Assembly (NCBI RefSeq): GCF_003790525.1
Contig: NZ_CP033635.1
Source of the DNA: Escherichia coli
Lineage (GTDB): Bacteria; Pseudomonadota; Gammaproteobacteria; Enterobacterales; Enterobacteriaceae
DNA: 64,000 bases
Strand: one strand, 5' to 3'
Made by a program: the position numbers and the translations under genes. Every line of letters starts with the position of its first letter. Position 1 is the first letter of the stretch. A model generated the notes under the pieces. The model saw nothing but the letters and a program-made list of their open reading frames with translations. It ran no database searches and was not told the DNA's origin. Positions 55,618 to 64,000 of the stretch are shown here, piece by piece.

Positions 55618-55774
55618 TGTTAACCCCTGCTAATTGATATTTGCTTGCTCTTCCCCATATTTTCCTGCTTACCGCCATTCAGCTGGTAGTACCTGTCGCA
55701 AATTCTTTACAGTTTTTAAACTAATGAGACGAATCTGATCGACGCAAAAAGTCCGTATGCCTACTATTAGCTCA

Positions 55775-55880
55775 CGGTTATAAATCAACATATTGATTTA
55801 TAAGCATGGAAATCCCCTGAGTGAAACAACGAATTGCTGTGTGTAGTCTTTGCCCATCTCCCACGATGGGCTTTTTTTTA
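55775..55880 (+). ncRNA. rprA: RprA small regulatory RNA
   Basis: ACGGTTATAAATCAACATATTGATTTATAAGCATGGAAATCCCCTGAGTGAAACAACGAATTGCTGTGTGTAGTCTTTGCCCATCTCCCACGATGGGC + T8 matches the RprA sequence I recall. Confidence 0.9.
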
Positions 55881-56016
55881 ACATTTTTCCGCTTCGCCAC
55901 CTCGCCCCTCACGCTTTCCAATAATGTTGCACAAGATACTGTGACTCTCTTCAAGCCGTCAGCAGGCTGATAATGTTATTTATATTTTATTGTTTATTTC
56001 ATGCAGCCATTACACG

Positions 56017-56373
56017 ATGAACGCTTATGAACTCCAGGCACTTCGCCATATTTTTGCCATGACTATTGATGAATGCGCGACCTGGATTGCCCAGACCGGT
56101 GACAGTGAAAGCTGGCGTCAGTGGGAAAATGGCAAATGCGCCATTCCTGATTGTGTAGTCGAGCAACTGTTGGCTATGCGTCAGCAACGAAAAAAACATC
56201 TTCATGCCATCATAGAGAAAATAAATAACCGCATCGGCAACAACACCATGCGTTTTTTCCCCGACTTAACCGCGTTTCAACAAGTCTACCCTGATGGCAA
56301 TTTTATTGACTGGAAGATCTATCAATCGGTAGCCGCTGAATTATATGCACACGATCTGGAGCGGCTTTGTTAA
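56017..56373 (+). CDS. ydiL: uncharacterised DUF1870 protein
   Basis: ORF 55990..56373; start placed at ATG 56017 (MNAYELQALRHIFAMTIDECATWIAQTGDS...), 118 aa. Confidence 0.85.
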   Translation: MNAYELQALRHIFAMTIDECATWIAQTGDSESWRQWENGKCAIPDCVVEQLLAMRQQRKKHLHAIIEKINNRIGNNTMRFFPDLTAFQQVYPDGNFIDWKIYQSVAAELYAHDLERLC

Positions 56374-56472: not shown

Positions 56473-57687
56473 ATGAAAAATCCCTATTACCCTACCGCAC
56501 TGGGGTTGTATTTTAATTATCTGGTGCATGGTATGGGCGTCATTTTGATGAGCCTGAATATGGCCTCGCTGGAGACGCTTTGGCAGACTAATGCCGCGGG
56601 CGTCTCGATAGTTATCTCATCACTGGGCATTGGTCGATTAAGTGTCTTGCTTTTTGCAGGATTATTATCCGATCGCTTTGGTCGCCGCCCTTTTATCATG
56701 CTCGGGATGTGCTGCTATATGGCCTTCTTTTTTGGCATCCTGCACACCAATAACATCATTATCGCTTATGTTTTTGGCTTTCTGGCGGGAATGGCAAACA
56801 GTTTTCTCGATGCAGGCACCTATCCCAGTTTGATGGAAGCTTTTCCACGCTCACCGGGTACAGCCAATATTTTAATTAAAGCATTTGTTTCCAGCGGACA
56901 ATTTTTATTACCGCTAATTATCAGCCTGTTAGTGTGGGCTGAACTGTGGTTCGGTTGGTCCTTTATGATTGCCGCAGGCATTATGTTTATTAACGCTCTG
57001 TTTTTATACCGTTGTACGTTCCCACCCCATCCGGGTCGTCGCTTACCTGTCATAAAGAAAACCACCAGCTCTACGGAACATCGCTGTTCAATTATCGATT
57101 TAGCCAGTTATACCTTATATGGCTATATCTCAATGGCAACGTTTTATCTGGTTAGCCAGTGGCTGGCACAATACGGACAATTTGTTGCAGGCATGTCATA
57201 CACTATGTCGATCAAACTACTCAGTATCTACACCGTGGGTTCGCTGCTTTGTGTATTTATTACCGCTCCACTCATTCGTAATACCGTTCGCCCAACAACA
57301 TTACTGATGCTGTACACCTTTATCTCATTTATCGCCCTGCTCACCGTCTGCCTGCATCCCACATTTTATGTGGTGATAATATTTGCTTTCGTCATCGGTT
57401 TTACCTCCGCAGGCGGTGTTGTACAAATTGGCCTGACGTTAATGGCGGAACGTTTTCCCTACGCTAAAGGAAAAGCAACGGGGATCTATTACAGTGCGGG
57501 CAGCATTGCAACATTTACCATTCCGTTGATTACGGCTCATCTTTCGCAAAGAAGTATTGCCGATATTATGTGGTTCGATACCGCCATCGCTGCCATCGGC
57601 TTTATACTGGCACTGTTTATTGGCTTACGCAGTCGCAAAGAAACGCGGCATCACTCGCTAAAGGAAAATGTCGCTCCGGGTGGGTAA
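56473..57687 (+). CDS. ydiM: MFS transporter
   Basis: 404 aa 12-TM ORF MKNPYYPTALGLYFNYLVHGMGVILMSLNMASLETLWQ...; paralog of downstream ydiN. Confidence 0.9.
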   Translation: MKNPYYPTALGLYFNYLVHGMGVILMSLNMASLETLWQTNAAGVSIVISSLGIGRLSVLLFAGLLSDRFGRRPFIMLGMCCYMAFFFGILHTNNIIIAYVFGFLAGMANSFLDAGTYPSLMEAFPRSPGTANILIKAFVSSGQFLLPLIISLLVWAELWFGWSFMIAAGIMFINALFLYRCTFPPHPGRRLPVIKKTTSSTEHRCSIIDLASYTLYGYISMATFYLVSQWLAQYGQFVAGMSYTMSIKLLSIYTVGSLLCVFITAPLIRNTVRPTTLLMLYTFISFIALLTVCLHPTFYVVIIFAFVIGFTSAGGVVQIGLTLMAERFPYAKGKATGIYYSAGSIATFTIPLITAHLSQRSIADIMWFDTAIAAIGFILALFIGLRSRKETRHHSLKENVAPGG

Positions 57688-57913
57688 TGCAATATTCTTT
57701 TCAGGTTATGCAAGATCTTACGGATAAATAACTCTTTCTGCGCTAACTAAGGAAAATCGCGATCAAAAACAAACTATGACATGCAATATTCCTGGAAACA
57801 TAAACTTTATGCCATGTACACAGGGAAAATCATCTTCAGTATAGTAATTATGTAAACCGTCGGAGAACAATACGTACGGTAACGAAATTATCTTTCAGCA
57901 AGGAGCTGTGAAA

Positions 57914-59179
57914 ATGTCTCAAAATAAGGCTTTCAGCACGCCATTTATCCTGGCTGTTCTTTGTATTTACTTCAGCTATTTCCTGCACGGCATTAGTGTT
58001 ATTACGCTTGCCCAAAACATGACATCTCTGGCAGAAAAGTTTTCCACTGACAACGCGGGCATTGCCTATTTAATTTCCGGTATCGGTTTGGGGCGATTGA
58101 TCAGTATTTTATTCTTCGGTGTGATCTCCGATAAGTTTGGTCGTCGGGCGGTGATATTAATGGCAGTAATAATGTATCTGCTATTCTTCTTTGGTATTCC
58201 TGCTTGCCCGAATTTAACTCTCGCCTACTGTCTGGCAGTGTGCGTAGGTATCGCTAACTCAGCGCTGGATACGGGTGGCTACCCCGCGCTCATGGAATGC
58301 TTTCCGAAAGCCTCTGGTTCGGCGGTCATACTGGTTAAAGCGATGGTGTCATTCGGGCAAATGTTCTACCCAATGCTGGTGAGCTATATGTTGCTCAATA
58401 ACATCTGGTACGGCTATGGGCTGATTATTCCGGGTATTCTGTTTGTACTGATCACGCTGATGCTGTTGAAAAGCAAATTCCCCAGCCAGTTGGTGGACGC
58501 CAGCGTAGCTAATGAATTACCGCAAATGAACAGCAAACCGTTAGTCTGGCTGGAAGGTGTTTCATCAGTACTGTTCGGTGTAGCCGCATTCTCGACCTTT
58601 TATGTGATTGTGGTGTGGATGCCCAAATATGCGATGGCTTTTGCTGGTATGTCAGAAGCTGAGGCATTAAAAACCATCTCTTATTACAGTATGGGTTCGC
58701 TGGTCTGTGTCTTTATTTTTGCCGCACTGCTGAAAAAAATGGTCCGGCCCATCTGGGCTAATGCATTTAACTCTGCACTGGCAACAATAACAGCTGCCAT
58801 TATCTACCTGTACCCTTCTCCATTGGTGTGTAATGCCGGAGCCTTTGTTATCGGTTTCTCAGCAGCTGGCGGCATTTTACAGCTCGGCGTTTCGGTCATG
58901 TCAGAGTTTTTCCCAAAAAGCAAAGCCAAAGTCACCAGTATATATATGATGATGGGTGGACTGGCTAACTTTGTTATTCCGCTGATTACCGGTTATCTGT
59001 CGAACATCGGCCTGCAATATATCATTGTTCTCGATTTTACTTTCGCGCTGCTGGCCCTGATTACCGCAATTATTGTTTTTATCCGCTATTACCGCGTTTT
59101 CATTATTCCTGAAAATGATGTGCGGTTTGGCGAGCATAAATTTAGCACCCGGTTAAACACAATTAAGCATAGAGGTTAA
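57914..59179 (+). CDS. ydiN: MFS transporter
   Basis: track ORF starts at GTG 57908; ATG 57914 preferred (AGGAG 8 nt upstream; [26 protein letters not shown]...), 421 aa. Confidence 0.88.
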
Positions 59180-59190
59180 AGGAGTTAATT

Positions 59191-60057
59191 ATGAATGTTA
59201 CCGCAAAATACGAATTGATTGGGTTGATGGCCTATCCCATCCGCCACAGTTTATCGCCCGAAATGCAGAATAAAGCCTTAGAAAAAGCGGGATTGCCATT
59301 TACCTATATGGCCTTTGAAGTGGATAACGATAGTTTTCCCGCAGCAATTGAAGGATTAAAAGCCCTCAAAATGCGTGGAACTGGTGTGTCGATGCCGAAC
59401 AAACAACTGGCGTGTGAATATGTTGATGAATTAACGCCAGCGGCCAAACTGGTGGGTGCCATCAACACCATCGTTAATGATGATGGCTATCTGCGTGGCT
59501 ATAACACCGACGGCACGGGTCATATTCGCGCCATTAAAGAGAGCGGTTTTGATATCAAAGGCAAAACGATGGTGCTATTAGGGGCCGGTGGTGCCTCAAC
59601 GGCAATTGGCGCGCAGGGGGCAATTGAAGGTTTAAAAGAAATTAAACTCTTTAACCGTCGGGATGAGTTCTTCGATAAAGCCCTCGCCTTCGCGCAGCGG
59701 GTTAACGAAAACACCGATTGTGTCGTCACGGTTACCGATCTCGCCGATCAGCAAGCCTTTGCTGAAGCCCTGGCTTCCGCCGACATTTTAACCAATGGCA
59801 CAAAAGTGGGTATGAAACCCCTTGAGAATGAATCATTGGTTCATGATATCAGTCTGTTACATCCGGGACTTCTGGTCACTGAATGCGTGTATAACCCGCA
59901 TATGACGAAGTTATTGCAGCAGGCGCAACAAGCGGGTTGCAAAACGATTGATGGATACGGCATGTTGTTGTGGCAAGGGGCTGAACAGTTCACGTTATGG
60001 ACTGGCAAAGATTTCCCTCTGGAATATGTTAAACAGGTCATGGGGTTCGGTGCCTGA
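59191..60057 (+). CDS. ydiB: quinate/shikimate 5-dehydrogenase, NAD(P)-dependent
   Basis: 288 aa [40 protein letters not shown]... recognised as YdiB; 11 bp after ydiN stop. Confidence 0.95.
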
Positions 60058-60087
60058 CAGGCTGACCGCGTGCAGAAAGGGTAAAAA

Positions 60088-60846
60088 ATGAAAACCGTAA
60101 CTGTAAAAGATCTCGTCATTGGTACGGGCGCACCTAAAATCATCGTCTCGCTGATGGCGAAAGATATCGCCAGCGTGAAATCCGAAGCTCTCGCCTATCG
60201 TGAAGCGGACTTTGATATTCTGGAATGGCGTGTTGACCACTATGCCGACCTCTCCAATGTGGAGTCTGTCATGGCGGCAGCAAAAATTCTCCGTGAAACC
60301 ATGCCAGAAAAACCGCTGCTGTTTACCTTCCGCAGTGCCAAAGAAGGCGGCGAGCAGGCGATTTCCACCGAGGCTTATATTGCACTCAATCGTGCAGCCA
60401 TCGACAGTGGCCTGGTTGATATGATCGATCTGGAGTTATTTACCGGCGATGATCAGGTTAAAGAAACCGTCGCCTACGCCCACGCGCATGATGTGAAAGT
60501 TGTCATGTCTAACCATGACTTCCATAAAACGCCGGAAGCCGAAGAAATCATTGCCCGTCTGCGCAAAATGCAGTCCTTCGACGCCGATATTCCTAAGATT
60601 GCGCTGATGCCGCAAAGTACCAGCGATGTGCTGACGTTGCTTGCCGCGACCCTGGAGATGCAGGAGCAGTATGCCGATCGTCCAATCATCACGATGTCGA
60701 TGGCAAAAACTGGCGTAATTTCTCGTCTGGCTGGTGAAGTATTTGGGTCGGCGGCAACTTTTGGTGCGGTAAAAAAAGCCTCTGCGCCAGGGCAAATCTC
60801 GGTAAATGATTTGCGTACGGTATTAACTATTTTACATCAGGCATAA
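60088..60846 (+). CDS. aroD: 3-dehydroquinate dehydratase, type I
   Basis: 252 aa [55 protein letters not shown]... Confidence 0.96.
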
Positions 60847-60991
60847 GCAATAATATTTCGGCGGGAATACCCTCCCCCGCCGAACTAAAAAAAGTATTTT
60901 TAACCGTATTTAATAAAAATATTTCGTGAGTCTCTGTGCGCTAATTCTCCATCTGGCGTAGGGAAAATCACACCTGAATCAGGAATTAACA

Positions 60992-62587
60992 ATGAAACCT
61001 GTAAAACCACCTCGTATTAATGGACGAGTGCCGGTCCTGTCGGCACAGGAAGCGGTGAATTATATTCCCGACGAAGCAACACTTTGTGTGTTAGGCGCTG
61101 GCGGCGGTATTCTGGAAGCCACCACGTTAATTACTGCTCTTGCTGATAAATATAAACAGACTCAAACACCACGTAATTTATCGATTATTAGTCCAACAGG
61201 GCTTGGCGATCGCGCCGACCGTGGCATTAGTCCGCTGGCACAAGAAGGTCTGGTGAAATGGGCATTATGCGGTCACTGGGGACAATCGCCGCGTATTTCT
61301 GATCTCGCAGAACAAAATAAAATTATTGCTTATAACTATCCACAAGGTGTACTTACACAAACCTTACGCGCCGCCGCAGCCCACCAGCCTGGTATTATTA
61401 GTGATATTGGCATCGGAACATTTGTCGATCCACGCCAGCAAGGCGGCAAACTGAATGAAGTCACTAAAGAAGACCTGATTAAACTGGTCGAGTTTGATAA
61501 CAAAGAATATCTCTATTACAAATCGATTGCGCCAGATATCGCCTTCATTCGCGCTACCACCTGCGACAGCGAAGGCTACGCCACTTTTGAAGATGAGGTG
61601 ATGTATCTCGACGCATTGGTTATTGCTCAGGCGGTGCACAATAACGGCGGTATTGTGATGATGCAGGTGCAGAAAATGGTTAAGAAAGCCACGCTGCATC
61701 CTAAATCTGTCCGTATTCCGGGTTATCTGGTGGATATTGTGGTGGTCGATCCGGATCAAACCCAACTGTATGGCGGTGCACCGGTTAACCGCTTTATTTC
61801 TGGTGACTTCACCCTTGATGACAGTACCAAACTTAGCCTGCCCCTAAACCAACGTAAATTAGTTGCGCGGCGCGCATTATTCGAAATGCGCAAAGGCGCA
61901 GTGGGGAATGTCGGCGTCGGTATTGCTGACGGCATTGGCCTGGTCGCCCGGGAAGAAGGTTGTGCTGATGACTTTATTCTGACGGTAGAAACAGGTCCGA
62001 TTGGCGGTATTACTTCACAGGGGATCGCCTTTGGCGCGAACGTGAATACCCGCGCCATTCTGGATATGACGTCCCAGTTTGATTTTTATCACGGTGGTGG
62101 TCTGGATGTTTGTTATTTGAGTTTTGCTGAAGTCGACCAGCACGGTAACGTCGGCGTGCATAAATTCAATGGTAAAATCATGGGCACCGGTGGATTTATT
62201 GATATCAGTGCCACTTCGAAGAAAATCGTGTTCTGCGGCACATTAACTGCGGGCAGTTTAAAAACAGAAATTACCGACGGCAAATTAAATATCGTCCAGG
62301 AAGGACGGGTGAAGAAATTTATTCGGGAACTACCGGAAATAACTTTCAGCGGAAAAATCGCTCTCGAGCGAGGGCTGGATGTTCGTTATATCACTGAGCG
62401 CGCCGTATTCACGTTAAAAGAAGACGGCCTGCATTTAATCGAAATCGCTCCTGGCGTCGATTTACAAAAAGATATTTTCGACAAAATGGATTTCACCCCA
62501 GTGATTTCGCCAGAACTCAAACTGATGGACGAAAGATTATTTATCGATGCGGCGATGGGTTTTGTCCTGCCTGAAGCGGCTCATTAA
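60992..62587 (+). CDS. ydiF: fused acyl-CoA:acetate CoA-transferase (alpha/beta subunits)
   Basis: 531 aa ORF MKPVKPPRINGRVPVLSAQEAVNYIPDEATLCVLGAGGG... Confidence 0.9.
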   Translation: MKPVKPPRINGRVPVLSAQEAVNYIPDEATLCVLGAGGGILEATTLITALADKYKQTQTPRNLSIISPTGLGDRADRGISPLAQEGLVKWALCGHWGQSPRISDLAEQNKIIAYNYPQGVLTQTLRAAAAHQPGIISDIGIGTFVDPRQQGGKLNEVTKEDLIKLVEFDNKEYLYYKSIAPDIAFIRATTCDSEGYATFEDEVMYLDALVIAQAVHNNGGIVMMQVQKMVKKATLHPKSVRIPGYLVDIVVVDPDQTQLYGGAPVNRFISGDFTLDDSTKLSLPLNQRKLVARRALFEMRKGAVGNVGVGIADGIGLVAREEGCADDFILTVETGPIGGITSQGIAFGANVNTRAILDMTSQFDFYHGGGLDVCYLSFAEVDQHGNVGVHKFNGKIMGTGGFIDISATSKKIVFCGTLTAGSLKTEITDGKLNIVQEGRVKKFIRELPEITFSGKIALERGLDVRYITERAVFTLKEDGLHLIEIAPGVDLQKDIFDKMDFTPVISPELKLMDERLFIDAAMGFVLPEAAH

Positions 62588-62600
62588 CAGGAGTATAATG

Positions 62601-63752
62601 ATGGATTTTTCTTTAACTGAAGAACAAGAACTGCTGCTGGCCAGTATTCGCGAACTGATTACGACTAACTTTCCGGAAGAGTATTTCCGCACCTGCGATC
62701 AAAACGGGACATACCCGCGTGAGTTTATGCGGGCACTGGCGGATAACGGTATTTCCATGCTTGGCGTGCCGGAAGAATTTGGTGGTATCCCTGCGGATTA
62801 CGTCACCCAAATGCTGGCGCTGATGGAAGTGTCAAAATGCGGTGCTCCGGCATTTTTGATTACCAACGGTCAATGTATTCACAGTATGCGCCGTTTCGGT
62901 TCTGCAGAGCAGCTACGTAAAACGGCAGAGAGCACACTGGAAACGGGTGATCCCGCCTATGCCCTGGCATTGACGGAGCCAGGCGCAGGCTCAGACAACA
63001 ACAGTGCCACTACCACTTACACGCGTAAAAACGGCAAGGTTTACATCAACGGACAGAAAACCTTTATTACCGGTGCGAAAGAGTATCCATATATGCTGGT
63101 GTTGGCGCGCGATCCGCAACCGAAAGATCCGAAAAAGGCCTTTACTCTGTGGTGGGTCGACTCCAGTAAACCCGGCATTAAAATCAATCCACTGCATAAA
63201 ATCGGCTGGCATATGCTCAGCACCTGCGAAGTCTATCTCGACAACGTGGAAGTTGAAGAGAGCGACATGGTGGGCGAAGAAGGAATGGGTTTCCTCAATG
63301 TGATGTACAACTTTGAGATGGAGCGCCTGATCAACGCCGCGCGCAGCACCGGCTTTGCCGAATGCGCATTCGAAGATGCCGCCCGCTATGCCAACCAGCG
63401 TATCGCTTTTGGTAAGCCCATTGGTCATAACCAGATGATCCAGGAAAAACTGGCGCTGATGGCGATTAAGATCGACAACATGCGCAACATGGTGTTGAAA
63501 GTGGCATGGCAAGCCGATCAGCATCAGTCACTGCGCACCAGCGCGGCGCTGGCAAAACTGTACTGCGCACGTACCGCAATGGAAGTCATTGATGATGCGA
63601 TTCAAATCATGGGCGGTCTGGGCTATACCGATGAGGCGCGCGTGTCCCGCTTCTGGCGTGATGTCCGTTGTGAACGTATCGGCGGCGGTACAGACGAAAT
63701 TATGATTTACGTAGCGGGTCGGCAGATCCTGAAAGATTATCAGAACAAATAA
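62601..63752 (+). CDS. ydiO: acyl-CoA dehydrogenase family protein
   Basis: ORF 62547..63752; start placed at ATG 62601 (AGGAG 7 nt upstream; MDFSLTEEQELLLASIRELITTNFPEEYF...), 383 aa. Confidence 0.9.
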   Translation: MDFSLTEEQELLLASIRELITTNFPEEYFRTCDQNGTYPREFMRALADNGISMLGVPEEFGGIPADYVTQMLALMEVSKCGAPAFLITNGQCIHSMRRFGSAEQLRKTAESTLETGDPAYALALTEPGAGSDNNSATTTYTRKNGKVYINGQKTFITGAKEYPYMLVLARDPQPKDPKKAFTLWWVDSSKPGIKINPLHKIGWHMLSTCEVYLDNVEVEESDMVGEEGMGFLNVMYNFEMERLINAARSTGFAECAFEDAARYANQRIAFGKPIGHNQMIQEKLALMAIKIDNMRNMVLKVAWQADQHQSLRTSAALAKLYCARTAMEVIDDAIQIMGGLGYTDEARVSRFWRDVRCERIGGGTDEIMIYVAGRQILKDYQNK

Positions 63753-63794: not shown

Positions 63795-64000
63795 TTATCC
63801 GGCAAGACTTACTGGTTGAGGAAATTCAGATAGGATTTCTTGTTCCGCAAAACAGTTTTTAAATTGCCTGCGGTAATCGCTGGGCGAACAGCCGACATGG
63901 CGCAAAAACAGTTTGGCAAAGTGATCGACATTTTCATAACCCACACGCCAGGAAATCTCTGCCTGTGATAATTCAGTATTAGTGAGTGACCATTTCGCTT
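63795..64000 (-). CDS. ydiP: AraC/XylS-family regulator, C-terminal part only (5-prime end beyond window)
   Basis: hand translation of the minus strand gives ...FAKLFLRHVGCSPSDYRRQFKNCFAEQEILSEFPQPVSLAG-stop (TAA 63795..63797), the AraC HTH C-terminal signature; absent from ORF track because partial. Confidence 0.7.
   Translation of the reverse strand, partial: AKWSLTNTELSQAEISWRVGYENVDHFAKLFLRHVGCSPSDYRRQFKNCFAEQEILSEFPQPVSLAG

Follow-up and report, generated by a model that had tools for sequence, protein, structure and literature searches.

The ydiM-ydiN-ydiB-aroD array and its conservation in E. coli

We describe the ydiM-ydiN-ydiB-aroD array of Escherichia coli and its surroundings in a 64-kb stretch of DNA (contig NZ_CP033635.1; in the following referred to as the window), which shows 100% identity to the E. 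coli SMS-3-5 chromosome. According to RefSeq the gene order in this part of the window is ydiJ, ydiK, rprA, ydiL, ydiM, ydiN, ydiB, aroD, ydiF, ydiO and ydiP, with ydiQRST and fadK beyond the window end. Comparison with the gene context of some 90 related loci suggests, as the new point of this report, that the array is where substrates enter a larger quinate/shikimate reduction pathway, of which it would form the first half and which would extend from ydiL to fadK (with a probability of roughly 0.5), and that its core is nearly always found together with a gene for a carbon-carbon double bond (C=C) reductase.

The four genes are located on the + strand and their open reading frames (ORFs), as given in a preliminary description of the window, coincide with the RefSeq annotation of SMS-3-5. 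The ydiM (56473..57687) and ydiN (57914..59179, counted from the annotated ATG; an in-frame GTG is present upstream of it, at 57908) genes encode major facilitator superfamily (MFS) transporters of 404 and 421 aa, respectively, and YdiN is a putative quinate/shikimate/dehydroshikimate importer. That the two are paralogues, as first described, is supported by 37% identity over 385 aa (E 2e-86). The product of ydiB (59191..60057) is an NAD(P)-dependent quinate/shikimate dehydrogenase with a solved E. coli structure (PDB 1NPD/1O9B), scoring 667 bits against the NCBIfam equivalog NF009390 (cut-off 349), and aroD (60088..60846) encodes a type I 3-dehydroquinate dehydratase (dehydroquinase; 292 bits vs a cut-off of 139), which doubles as a biosynthetic enzyme; both assignments had been made in the preliminary description and hold. 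The ydiN stop and the ydiB ATG are separated by 11 bp, with AGGAG 6 nt 5' of the ATG within this gap, and the ydiB stop and the aroD ATG by 30 bp, confirming the distances reported earlier. The wording that the transporter genes are "fused" into the array is misleading, since it consists of four separate ORFs. Nor is ydiM a tightly coupled member: the gap between ydiM and ydiN is 226 bp and carries a conserved promoter-like -10 element as well as repeated motifs.

Of 5426 complete E. coli genomes, 5425 contain the array, and 5317 retain 80% or more of it intact; it is a core feature of the species. Less than 80% is left in approximately 2% of these genomes. In E. coli MB50, ydiM, ydiN and part of ydiB are deleted and aroD is kept together with the 3' end of ydiB, which is consistent with aroD being the sole part of the array needed in routine growth. 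As a separate observation, a protein of 668 aa from one Logan assembly (P0007) has YdiN (100% identity, 91% of the query) joined to shikimate-dehydrogenase domains; because ydiN and ydiB are in different frames in the window, this fusion is probably due to an indel or an assembly error.

Transcription of ydiN, ydiB and aroD

The short intergenic distances had been taken to suggest co-transcription of ydiN, ydiB and aroD. The common strand, the short gaps and the lack of a terminator-like site between these genes are in keeping with this, but their transcript levels are unequal. In RNA-seq data for E. coli K-12 grown in glucose M9 (supplement of PMC8464067; the column used was taken to be baseMean) the values are 4.8 for ydiL, 4.4 for ydiM, 3.2 for ydiN, 12.2 for ydiB, 365 for aroD, 30 for ydiF and 27 for ydiO. 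Given that aroD is ≈30-fold above ydiB, aroD has its own promoter under standard conditions, and any transcript running from ydiN into aroD would hence be conditional at most. The tight spacing of ydiN, ydiB and aroD is kept in Escherichia, Citrobacter and Kosakonia, and the corresponding gaps are 50-190 bp in Yersinia, Dickeya and Sutterella.

A consensus scan identified a candidate ydiN promoter (57817..57845, + strand; -35 TACACA, 17-nt spacer, -10 TATAGT; 9 of 12 positions), the -10 element of which is conserved in Citrobacter, Kosakonia, Intestinirhabdus and Serratia; the number of promoter and terminator consensus matches is not above chance. Upstream of aroD we detected only weak hexamers in the sequence and the position of the internal promoter was not found. 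On the 3' side of aroD a GC-rich hairpin (TATTTCGGCGGG...CCCGCCGAACTA; 60854..60887) is followed on the + strand by an A-run instead of a T-run, and hence it is not a canonical + strand terminator. After this hairpin there is also an AT-rich inverted repeat at 60892-60924.

Gene context in Proteobacteria and Firmicutes

To survey the gene context we scanned the YdiM/N-family alignment against one genome per species, which resulted in 80 loci (42 proteobacterial and 38 Firmicutes), and scored neighbouring genes by tblastn using the E. coli Ydi proteins and three added reductase/regulator queries. A YdiM/N-type MFS gene is positioned beside a YdiB-type dehydrogenase gene in all untruncated proteobacterial loci and in 37 of the 38 Firmicutes loci, and a dehydroquinase gene is present in all but a few of the 80. 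The profiling of ydiMN with ydiB that the preliminary description proposed had already been carried out by Khalfaoui-Hassani et al. (2023).

In the Proteobacteria, genes for YdiB, AroD, YdiF, YdiO and the electron transfer flavoprotein (ETF) occur together in 37 of the 42 loci. Of the five exceptions, four are truncated where their contigs end, and the fifth, from Telmatospirillum, has a classical oxidative quinate gene set comprising a YdiN homologue and a protein with a domain pair matching dehydroshikimate dehydratase. This membership persists through at least five gene orders, represented by Enterobacterales, Sutterella, and the loci L004, L092, L093 and L056. Specifically, in the Sutterella order (L039, L044, L008 and L094) fadK-ydiTSRQ is divergent from ydiN-ydiB-aroD-ydiF-ydiO, L004 reads MFS-YdiF-YdiO-ETFb-ETFa-YdiB, the dehydroquinase gene of L092 is embedded between ETFa and FixC, and L093 and Sporolactobacillus L056 show further orders. 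YdiN orthologues lead the YdiB-AroD-YdiF-YdiO operons of Sutterella and of metagenome loci, and ydiF occurs together with the YdiB/AroD genes in Sutterella, L004, L092 and L093. The preliminary description had regarded the module as built around aroD; the module does not end there and would run on to fadK.

Among the 38 Firmicutes loci, the dehydrogenase gene is present in 37, the dehydroquinase gene in 36 and at least two MFS paralogues in 21, and the MFS protein encoded within the YdiB/AroD operons is nearer to YdiM (46-58% identity). A C=C reductase gene adjoins the core in 35 of them: 23 are of the Old Yellow Enzyme (OYE)/FadH-like type (nearest structures FadH 1PS9 and NCR 6QKG), 11 are of a flavin type (FMN_bind plus FAD_binding_2 domains), usually accompanied by ApbE, and one is of the coenzyme A (CoA)/ETF type, i.e. 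an acyl-CoA dehydrogenase (ACAD) with ETF. Nothing argues more strongly for a pathway in which the ring double bond made by AroD is also reduced than the finding of three non-homologous reductases on one and the same core. We also considered that an extracellular flavin reductase might be the reason for having two transporters; this was ruled out as the flavin-type reductases lack signal peptides.

Two loci deserve separate mention. The metagenome locus L093 (7061-19866) carries three ACAD paralogues and a desulfoferrodoxin gene in one hydroaromatic cluster. In L015, a 21.8-kb contig filed under the alphaproteobacterium 'Martelella alba', the Ydi proteins are 62-91% identical to those of E. 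coli and the gene order is enterobacterial, which suggests contamination or a recent transfer.

The downstream genes ydiF, ydiO, ydiQRST and fadK

Downstream of aroD, ydiF (60992..62587, + strand) encodes a family I acyl-CoA:carboxylate CoA-transferase (PDB 2AHU), here proposed to activate the ring acid, and ydiO (62601..63752, + strand) an ACAD-family protein that we propose to be an enoyl-CoA reductase. The 13-bp gap between the two genes is conserved in 40 loci; the mechanical ORF list takes an ATG at 62547 as the ydiO start, which would make the gene overlap the 3' end of ydiF, and the annotation has the start at 62601. YdiO shares 48% identity with CaiA, the crotonobetainyl-CoA reductase, and YdiQ, YdiR, YdiS and YdiT are 55, 44, 61 and 63% identical to FixA, FixB, FixC and FixX, respectively; for FadK and CaiC the identity is 29%. 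The parts of a Cai/Fix-type system, i.e. ACAD-type reductase, ETF, FixC/FixX-type module, CoA ligase and CoA transferase, are all clustered here, and the CaiA/FixABCX paralogy fits with a specialised reductive role of YdiO. The gene context points to shikimoyl-CoA or dehydroshikimoyl-CoA as the candidate YdiO substrate, whereas fatty acyl or butyryl substrates are preferred in the literature.

Between ydiJ and ppsA the annotation includes neither a dehydroshikimate dehydratase nor a protocatechuate pathway. In SMS-3-5 the interval between fadK and ppsA, beyond the window (L009 499-4140), has genes for an anion permease, a 2-hydroxyacid dehydrogenase, a YhcH/YjgK/YiaL-family protein and a short-chain dehydrogenase/reductase-type oxidoreductase. 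In Citrobacter sp. NCU1 the ydi cluster is preceded by an additional YdiO-like gene (69% identity; L020 2380-3519).

Regulators and upstream elements

The ydiL gene (56017..56373, + strand) encodes a helix-turn-helix protein of 118 aa belonging to the Aca2/YdiL family (full-length match to PF08965, Aca2_YdiL, formerly DUF1870, E 7e-62), with Salmonella YdiL (1S4K) and, at E ≈1e-14, the Aca2 repressors as matches in PDB. YdiL had been suggested as regulator of the array. In the 80-locus survey it is restricted to Enterobacterales, where it is always found alongside ydiM, and no inverted repeats that could serve as YdiL operators were detected in the ydiL, ydiM or ydiN upstream regions; a QuiR-like LysR protein and the AraC-type YdiP are better candidates. 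Aligning ten Enterobacterales genera revealed a sole conserved block 5' of ydiL (55915..55983, + strand), which may represent its promoter. This block includes a CRP-like site, TGTGACTCTCTTCAAG (55940-55955, TGTGA-N6-TCA), a TGCA-N8-GGAAA motif on the minus strand ending at 55931, and a conserved extended -10-like TGTTATTTA. Matches in our CRP and FNR consensus scans are no commoner than in shuffled sequence, none of them is positioned in the ydiM-ydiN gap, and the CRP-like site 5' of ydiL alone gains weight since it is conserved across genera. It would suit the carbon-limitation induction reported for the array if transcription reads through from ydiL. Just 5' of the block, between ydiK and ydiL, is the small RNA RprA (55774-55881, + strand; Rfam RF00034, 118.5 bits) with its terminator hairpin at 55852-55871 followed by a T-run.

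In Yersinia, Dickeya, Brenneria and Symbiopectobacterium the ydiM-ydiN gap is long and harbours a divergent LysR gene, which is orthologous to the LysR gene beside 35 of the 38 Firmicutes operons. Its best structural relative by far is Listeria QuiR (5TED; E 2e-65 and 3e-52), and PDB entry 5TED is the QuiR effector domain with bound shikimate. Neither a QuiR-like LysR gene nor a remnant of one was detected in the 64-kb window or in the 5426 E. coli genomes; judging from these sequences E. coli has lost the QuiR-like activator.

The ydiM-ydiN gap of E. coli carries three direct copies of TGCAA(G/T)AT (57687..57799, + strand; long forms ATGCAAGATCTTACGG and TGCAATATTCCTGGAAAC) at 57687, 57708 and 57781, corresponding to -226, -205 and -132 from the ydiN ATG. 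Three of the four ATGCAAKAT matches in the window fall in this 226-bp gap, and the copies are conserved across genera. The motif is present twice 5' of ydiQ, with the same 73-bp spacing as before ydiN and near-identical long forms, and it shows a 21-bp periodicity beside the YdiP-like gene of L004. In 35 proteobacterial loci we counted 66 occurrences in the ydiP-ydiQ gap, 41 in the ydiM-ydiN gap and 47 in all genic sequence, numbers that are not phylogenetically independent. We read TGCAA(G/T)AT as a candidate operator of the AraC-family regulator YdiP, the gene of which (63795..64000, - strand) is cut by the window end such that the window holds its 3' part only; YdiP-like genes also adjoin the rearranged clusters L004, L093 and L039. 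If so, the motif would join ydiN-ydiB-aroD and ydiQRST-fadK in one regulon. A sigma-54 reading of the motif TGCAAGAT...TGGCA was rejected because its GG-to-GC distance is 17 nt and not 12. Further downstream, a FNR site reported for ydiP/ydiQ on the basis of chromatin immunoprecipitation (ChIP) in K-12 (TTGACGTAAATCAA) falls within the ydiP coding sequence (L009 9695-9708, beyond the window), and in SMS-3-5 this site has one half-site mismatch (…TCAG).

The transporters and previously published links to hydroaromatics

YdiM and YdiN score 113 and 112 bits against Pfam MFS_1, and 40 and 42 bits, which is below the cut-off of 418, against NCBIfam TIGR00895 (MFS aromatic acid:H+ symporter); they have been assigned the TC numbers 2.A.1.15.12 and 2.A.1.15.13 (PMC10588857). 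The link to hydroaromatic compounds made in the preliminary description stands with respect to the gene context across the 80 loci and the QuiR-like neighbouring regulator, but it is not novel. According to later papers citing Johansson & Liden (2006), ydiN, ydiB and aroD are up together in a shikimate producer under carbon vs phosphate limitation, and YdiN is suggested to transport shikimate or a by-product. Hu et al. (2009) grouped YdiL, YdiM and YdiN with the aro genes and reported shikimate-related auxotrophy for ydiN and ydiB deletions, and in approximately 75% of cases YdiM/YdiN homologues adjoin shikimate-pathway genes (Khalfaoui-Hassani et al. 2023; PMC10588857). Moreover, ydiN is routinely removed from production strains as a "putative shikimate transporter", its deletion raises the shikimate titre 1.3-fold, and less quinate is formed upon deletion of ydiB. 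In the form first given, the hydroaromatic reading of the array therefore adds nothing to the literature. None of the papers making this link brings in ydiF, ydiO or the ETF, and our literature search found no paper uniting ydiO, ydiF and shikimate; on dihydroshikimate, or on how lactobacilli metabolize quinate, nothing relevant was found.

A Salmonella multi-gene deletion including ydiMN is listed with a mixed (-/+) fitness effect in alfalfa sprouts, and for onions its effect is not significant (PMC13152249); as plant tissue is rich in quinate and shikimate, the sprout data are perhaps relevant.

A proposed reductive pathway and its relation to known systems

On the basis of these data we propose the following scheme. 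YdiN, and perhaps YdiM, would move quinate, shikimate or 3-dehydroshikimate through the membrane; alternatively, YdiM might export the product. Quinate would be oxidized to 3-dehydroquinate by YdiB and then dehydrated by AroD to 3-dehydroshikimate, a step that would make a ring C=C conjugated to the carboxylate, and YdiB would interconvert 3-dehydroshikimate and shikimate. Formation of the CoA thioester would be due to YdiF, primed by the ligase FadK, and YdiO would subsequently reduce the double bond with electrons from YdiQRST. The net outcome would be that plant-derived ring acids act as an anaerobic electron sink. In Firmicutes the same YdiB/MFS/AroD core would serve the same sink, with an OYE/FadH-type or flavin-type reductase presumably acting on the free acid. 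In present-day E. coli the QuiR-like activator is gone, the cluster is nearly silent in the laboratory, and a promoter of its own maintains aroD expression for the synthesis of aromatics. What the data establish are the identities of the genes, the enzyme families and the counts of the gene-context survey; the substrates transported, the CoA ester acted upon, the direction in which YdiO works and the regulator are inferred.

A wider proposal, which we consider less likely than not, is that ydiL to fadK, thirteen genes in all, make up a single cryptic pathway for anaerobic quinate/shikimate "respiration", also behind shikimate respiration in Sutterella and the reduction carried out by lactobacilli, such that the beta-oxidation and butyrate roles would be side activities. 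In lactobacilli, reduction of quinate to dihydroshikimate has long been known, and it would rest on the same core together with OYE- or flavin-type reductases. Sutterella wadsworthensis and Eggerthella lenta are reported to reduce the enoate of shikimate and to grow better for it, and a single flavin reductase is induced by shikimate in the latter (Little et al.). A genome of the species S. wadsworthensis carries a full ydi-like cluster (L044), which is a correlation with shikimate reduction only.

The scheme has features in common with several known systems. The Listeria qui1/qui2 operons with QuiR (Lmo0488, 5TED) likewise have a YdiB-type dehydrogenase (Listeria 3TNL vs YdiB, E 3e-94), a dehydroquinase, transporters and a divergent LysR gene, orthologues of which flank ydiN in Yersinia/Dickeya as well as the Firmicutes operons. 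However, the Listeria route ends in dehydroshikimate dehydratase and protocatechuate, whereas the ydi-type clusters have a C=C reductase, and E. coli is without the regulator. The oxidative qui/qsu/qut clusters share with the ydi array the combination of dehydrogenase, dehydroquinase and a transporter of presumed hydroaromatic substrate; unlike these, the ydiJ-ppsA stretch has no annotated dehydroshikimate dehydratase and E. coli lacks a dedicated hydroaromatic-responsive regulator.

The closest parallel on the downstream side is E. coli caiTABCDE with fixABCX, where the proteins are paralogous (YdiO/CaiA, YdiQRST/FixABCX and FadK/CaiC) and where, as proposed for the ydi side, a CoA ester is formed and the enoyl-CoA is reduced with ETF electrons in an anaerobic electron sink. 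The two differ in substrate, in the CoA-transferase (family I for YdiF vs family III for CaiB) and in the transporter (MFS vs the BCCT-family CaiT), and the ydi cluster lacks a hydratase and adds a dehydrogenase and a dehydratase that would create the double bond. Caffeate respiration by the Car system also uses a CoA transferase, a CoA ligase, an ACAD-type enoyl-CoA reductase and ETF, without a FixC/FixX-type module. CarC of Acetobacterium woodii CarABCDE (CarC-ETF, PDB 6FAH) matches YdiO with E 2e-45, a likeness at the generic ACAD level only. The gut flavin reductases, including the shikimate-induced one of E. lenta, were reported to convert the shikimate enoate to hydroshikimate (Little et al.), and the clusters in Lactobacillaceae carry an FMN_bind/FAD_binding_2 reductase with ApbE; in contrast, the E. 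coli/Sutterella cluster has the CoA/ACAD/ETF system, and the Lactobacillus enzyme, being without a signal peptide, appears to be cytosolic. Finally, the shikimate:H+ symporter ShiA is also an MFS protein with the same proposed substrate class, and shiA is deleted along with ydiN in production strains, but it belongs to another MFS family and is not clustered with any enzyme gene. Homology between ShiA and YdiM/YdiN was considered and dismissed, as there is no full-length similarity and the best local match covers 57 aa (E 0.001).

Weighing of alternative explanations

Several observations speak against the proposed reduction pathway. E. coli is not known to reduce quinate or to consume it. The ydi cluster is almost silent in standard culture (PMC8464067), and published genetics place ydiO, ydiQRST and fadK in the anaerobic beta-oxidation of fatty acids or butyrate. 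Between aroD and ydiF the compared loci all have at least 76 bp, and TGCAA(G/T)AT is nearly absent from this gap (one occurrence in 35 loci); a reverse test showed that one YdiO homologue (74% identity) stands alone without hydroaromatic genes. With respect to YdiP, ChIP-exo in glucose M9 without effector gave five weak sites, none of which is in the ydi cluster (PMC8464067), ChIP-seq tied YdiP to cold-shock genes, and the ydi promoters are not listed in the supplements of either. For YdiM there is a published link to copper and to the activity of the bo3 oxidase (PMC10588857). The enterobacterial loci are of common ancestry, and their counts are thus not independent. Furthermore, S. wadsworthensis has many flavin reductases that could explain its shikimate reduction.

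A rival reading, which builds on the uptake/interconversion module of the preliminary description and on Hu et al. (2009), sees the array as a module for salvage and interconversion only, in which YdiM/YdiN import substrate, YdiB and AroD feed aromatic amino-acid biosynthesis, and ydiF-fadK are unrelated beta-oxidation genes. YdiB and AroD do connect quinate and shikimate to dehydroshikimate, aroD is a biosynthetic gene, and the auxotrophy of the ydiN and ydiB deletions (Hu et al.), the frequent aroK neighbours, the fusion of some YdiM homologues to chorismate mutase (PMC10588857) and the genetics backing beta-oxidation roles of ydiO, ydiQRST and fadK all agree with it. We nevertheless find it unlikely, since it leaves unexplained why three non-homologous C=C reductase systems swap beside the same core, why YdiF, YdiO and the ETF have remained associated with YdiB and AroD in at least five different arrangements of the genes and in more than one phylum, and why ydiN and ydiQ are preceded by a common motif; uptake for salvage is, moreover, already served by ShiA. 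It appears rather more doubtful that the pathway is ancestral and now vestigial, i.e. that a QuiR-like loss in Escherichia, Citrobacter and Kosakonia left ydiM, ydiN and ydiB cryptic with only aroD under selection. The missing LysR trace in the window and in the 5426 E. coli genomes, the values of 3-12 for ydiL, ydiM, ydiN and ydiB vs 365 for aroD, and strains that lose ydiM, ydiN and part of ydiB yet retain aroD would be accounted for, but the ORFs are intact in 98% of the complete genomes, the region upstream of ydiN has conserved motifs and a -10 element in place of the LysR region, induction by carbon limitation has been reported, and shikimate titres shift upon deletion of ydiN.

The ydi proteins might instead handle overflow, with YdiN, and perhaps YdiM, exporting quinate, dehydroshikimate or gallate and YdiB/AroD running in reverse, a "hydroaromatic equilibration" in the sense of Johansson & Liden. 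In a carbon-limited shikimate overproducer ydiN, ydiB and aroD are reported to be up together and YdiN was proposed as by-product exporter, and quinate formation falls when ydiB is deleted. These observations, however, come from engineered overproducers, deletion of ydiN raises rather than lowers external shikimate, and neither the attached reductases nor the shikimate-sensing regulator of the relatives is explained, such that we give export little credence. Least probable of all, in our view, is that the transporters are unrelated to hydroaromatics and that YdiM, perhaps also YdiN, acts in copper supply to the bo3 oxidase or in isoprenol efflux. The ydiM mutants have a defective bo3 quinol oxidase and altered copper uptake, and TCDB lists YdiM as a putative isoprenol exporter (PMC10588857); these phenotypes could be indirect, the context is overwhelmingly hydroaromatic across the 80 loci, and the authors of the copper study found the hydroaromatic link too (PMC10588857).

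Implications

Should the array indeed feed a reductive hydroaromatic pathway as its first half, one coherent and directly testable function could be given to about ten E. coli y-genes. It would also give a new reading of ydiO, ydiQRST and fadK, which are widely used in the engineering of reverse beta-oxidation and have been linked to butyrate use in Salmonella, and predict a hidden anaerobic product sink in shikimate production strains. Outside E. coli it would provide candidate genes for shikimate reduction in Sutterella and for the quinate/shikimate reduction that the clusters predict in lactobacilli, enterococci and Megasphaera. The pathway would also bear on the handling by gut microbes of ring acids that are very abundant in the diet. 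On the wider proposal given above, it would be the missing microbial entry into the route leading from dietary quinate and chlorogenate to cyclohexanecarboxylate and hippurate.

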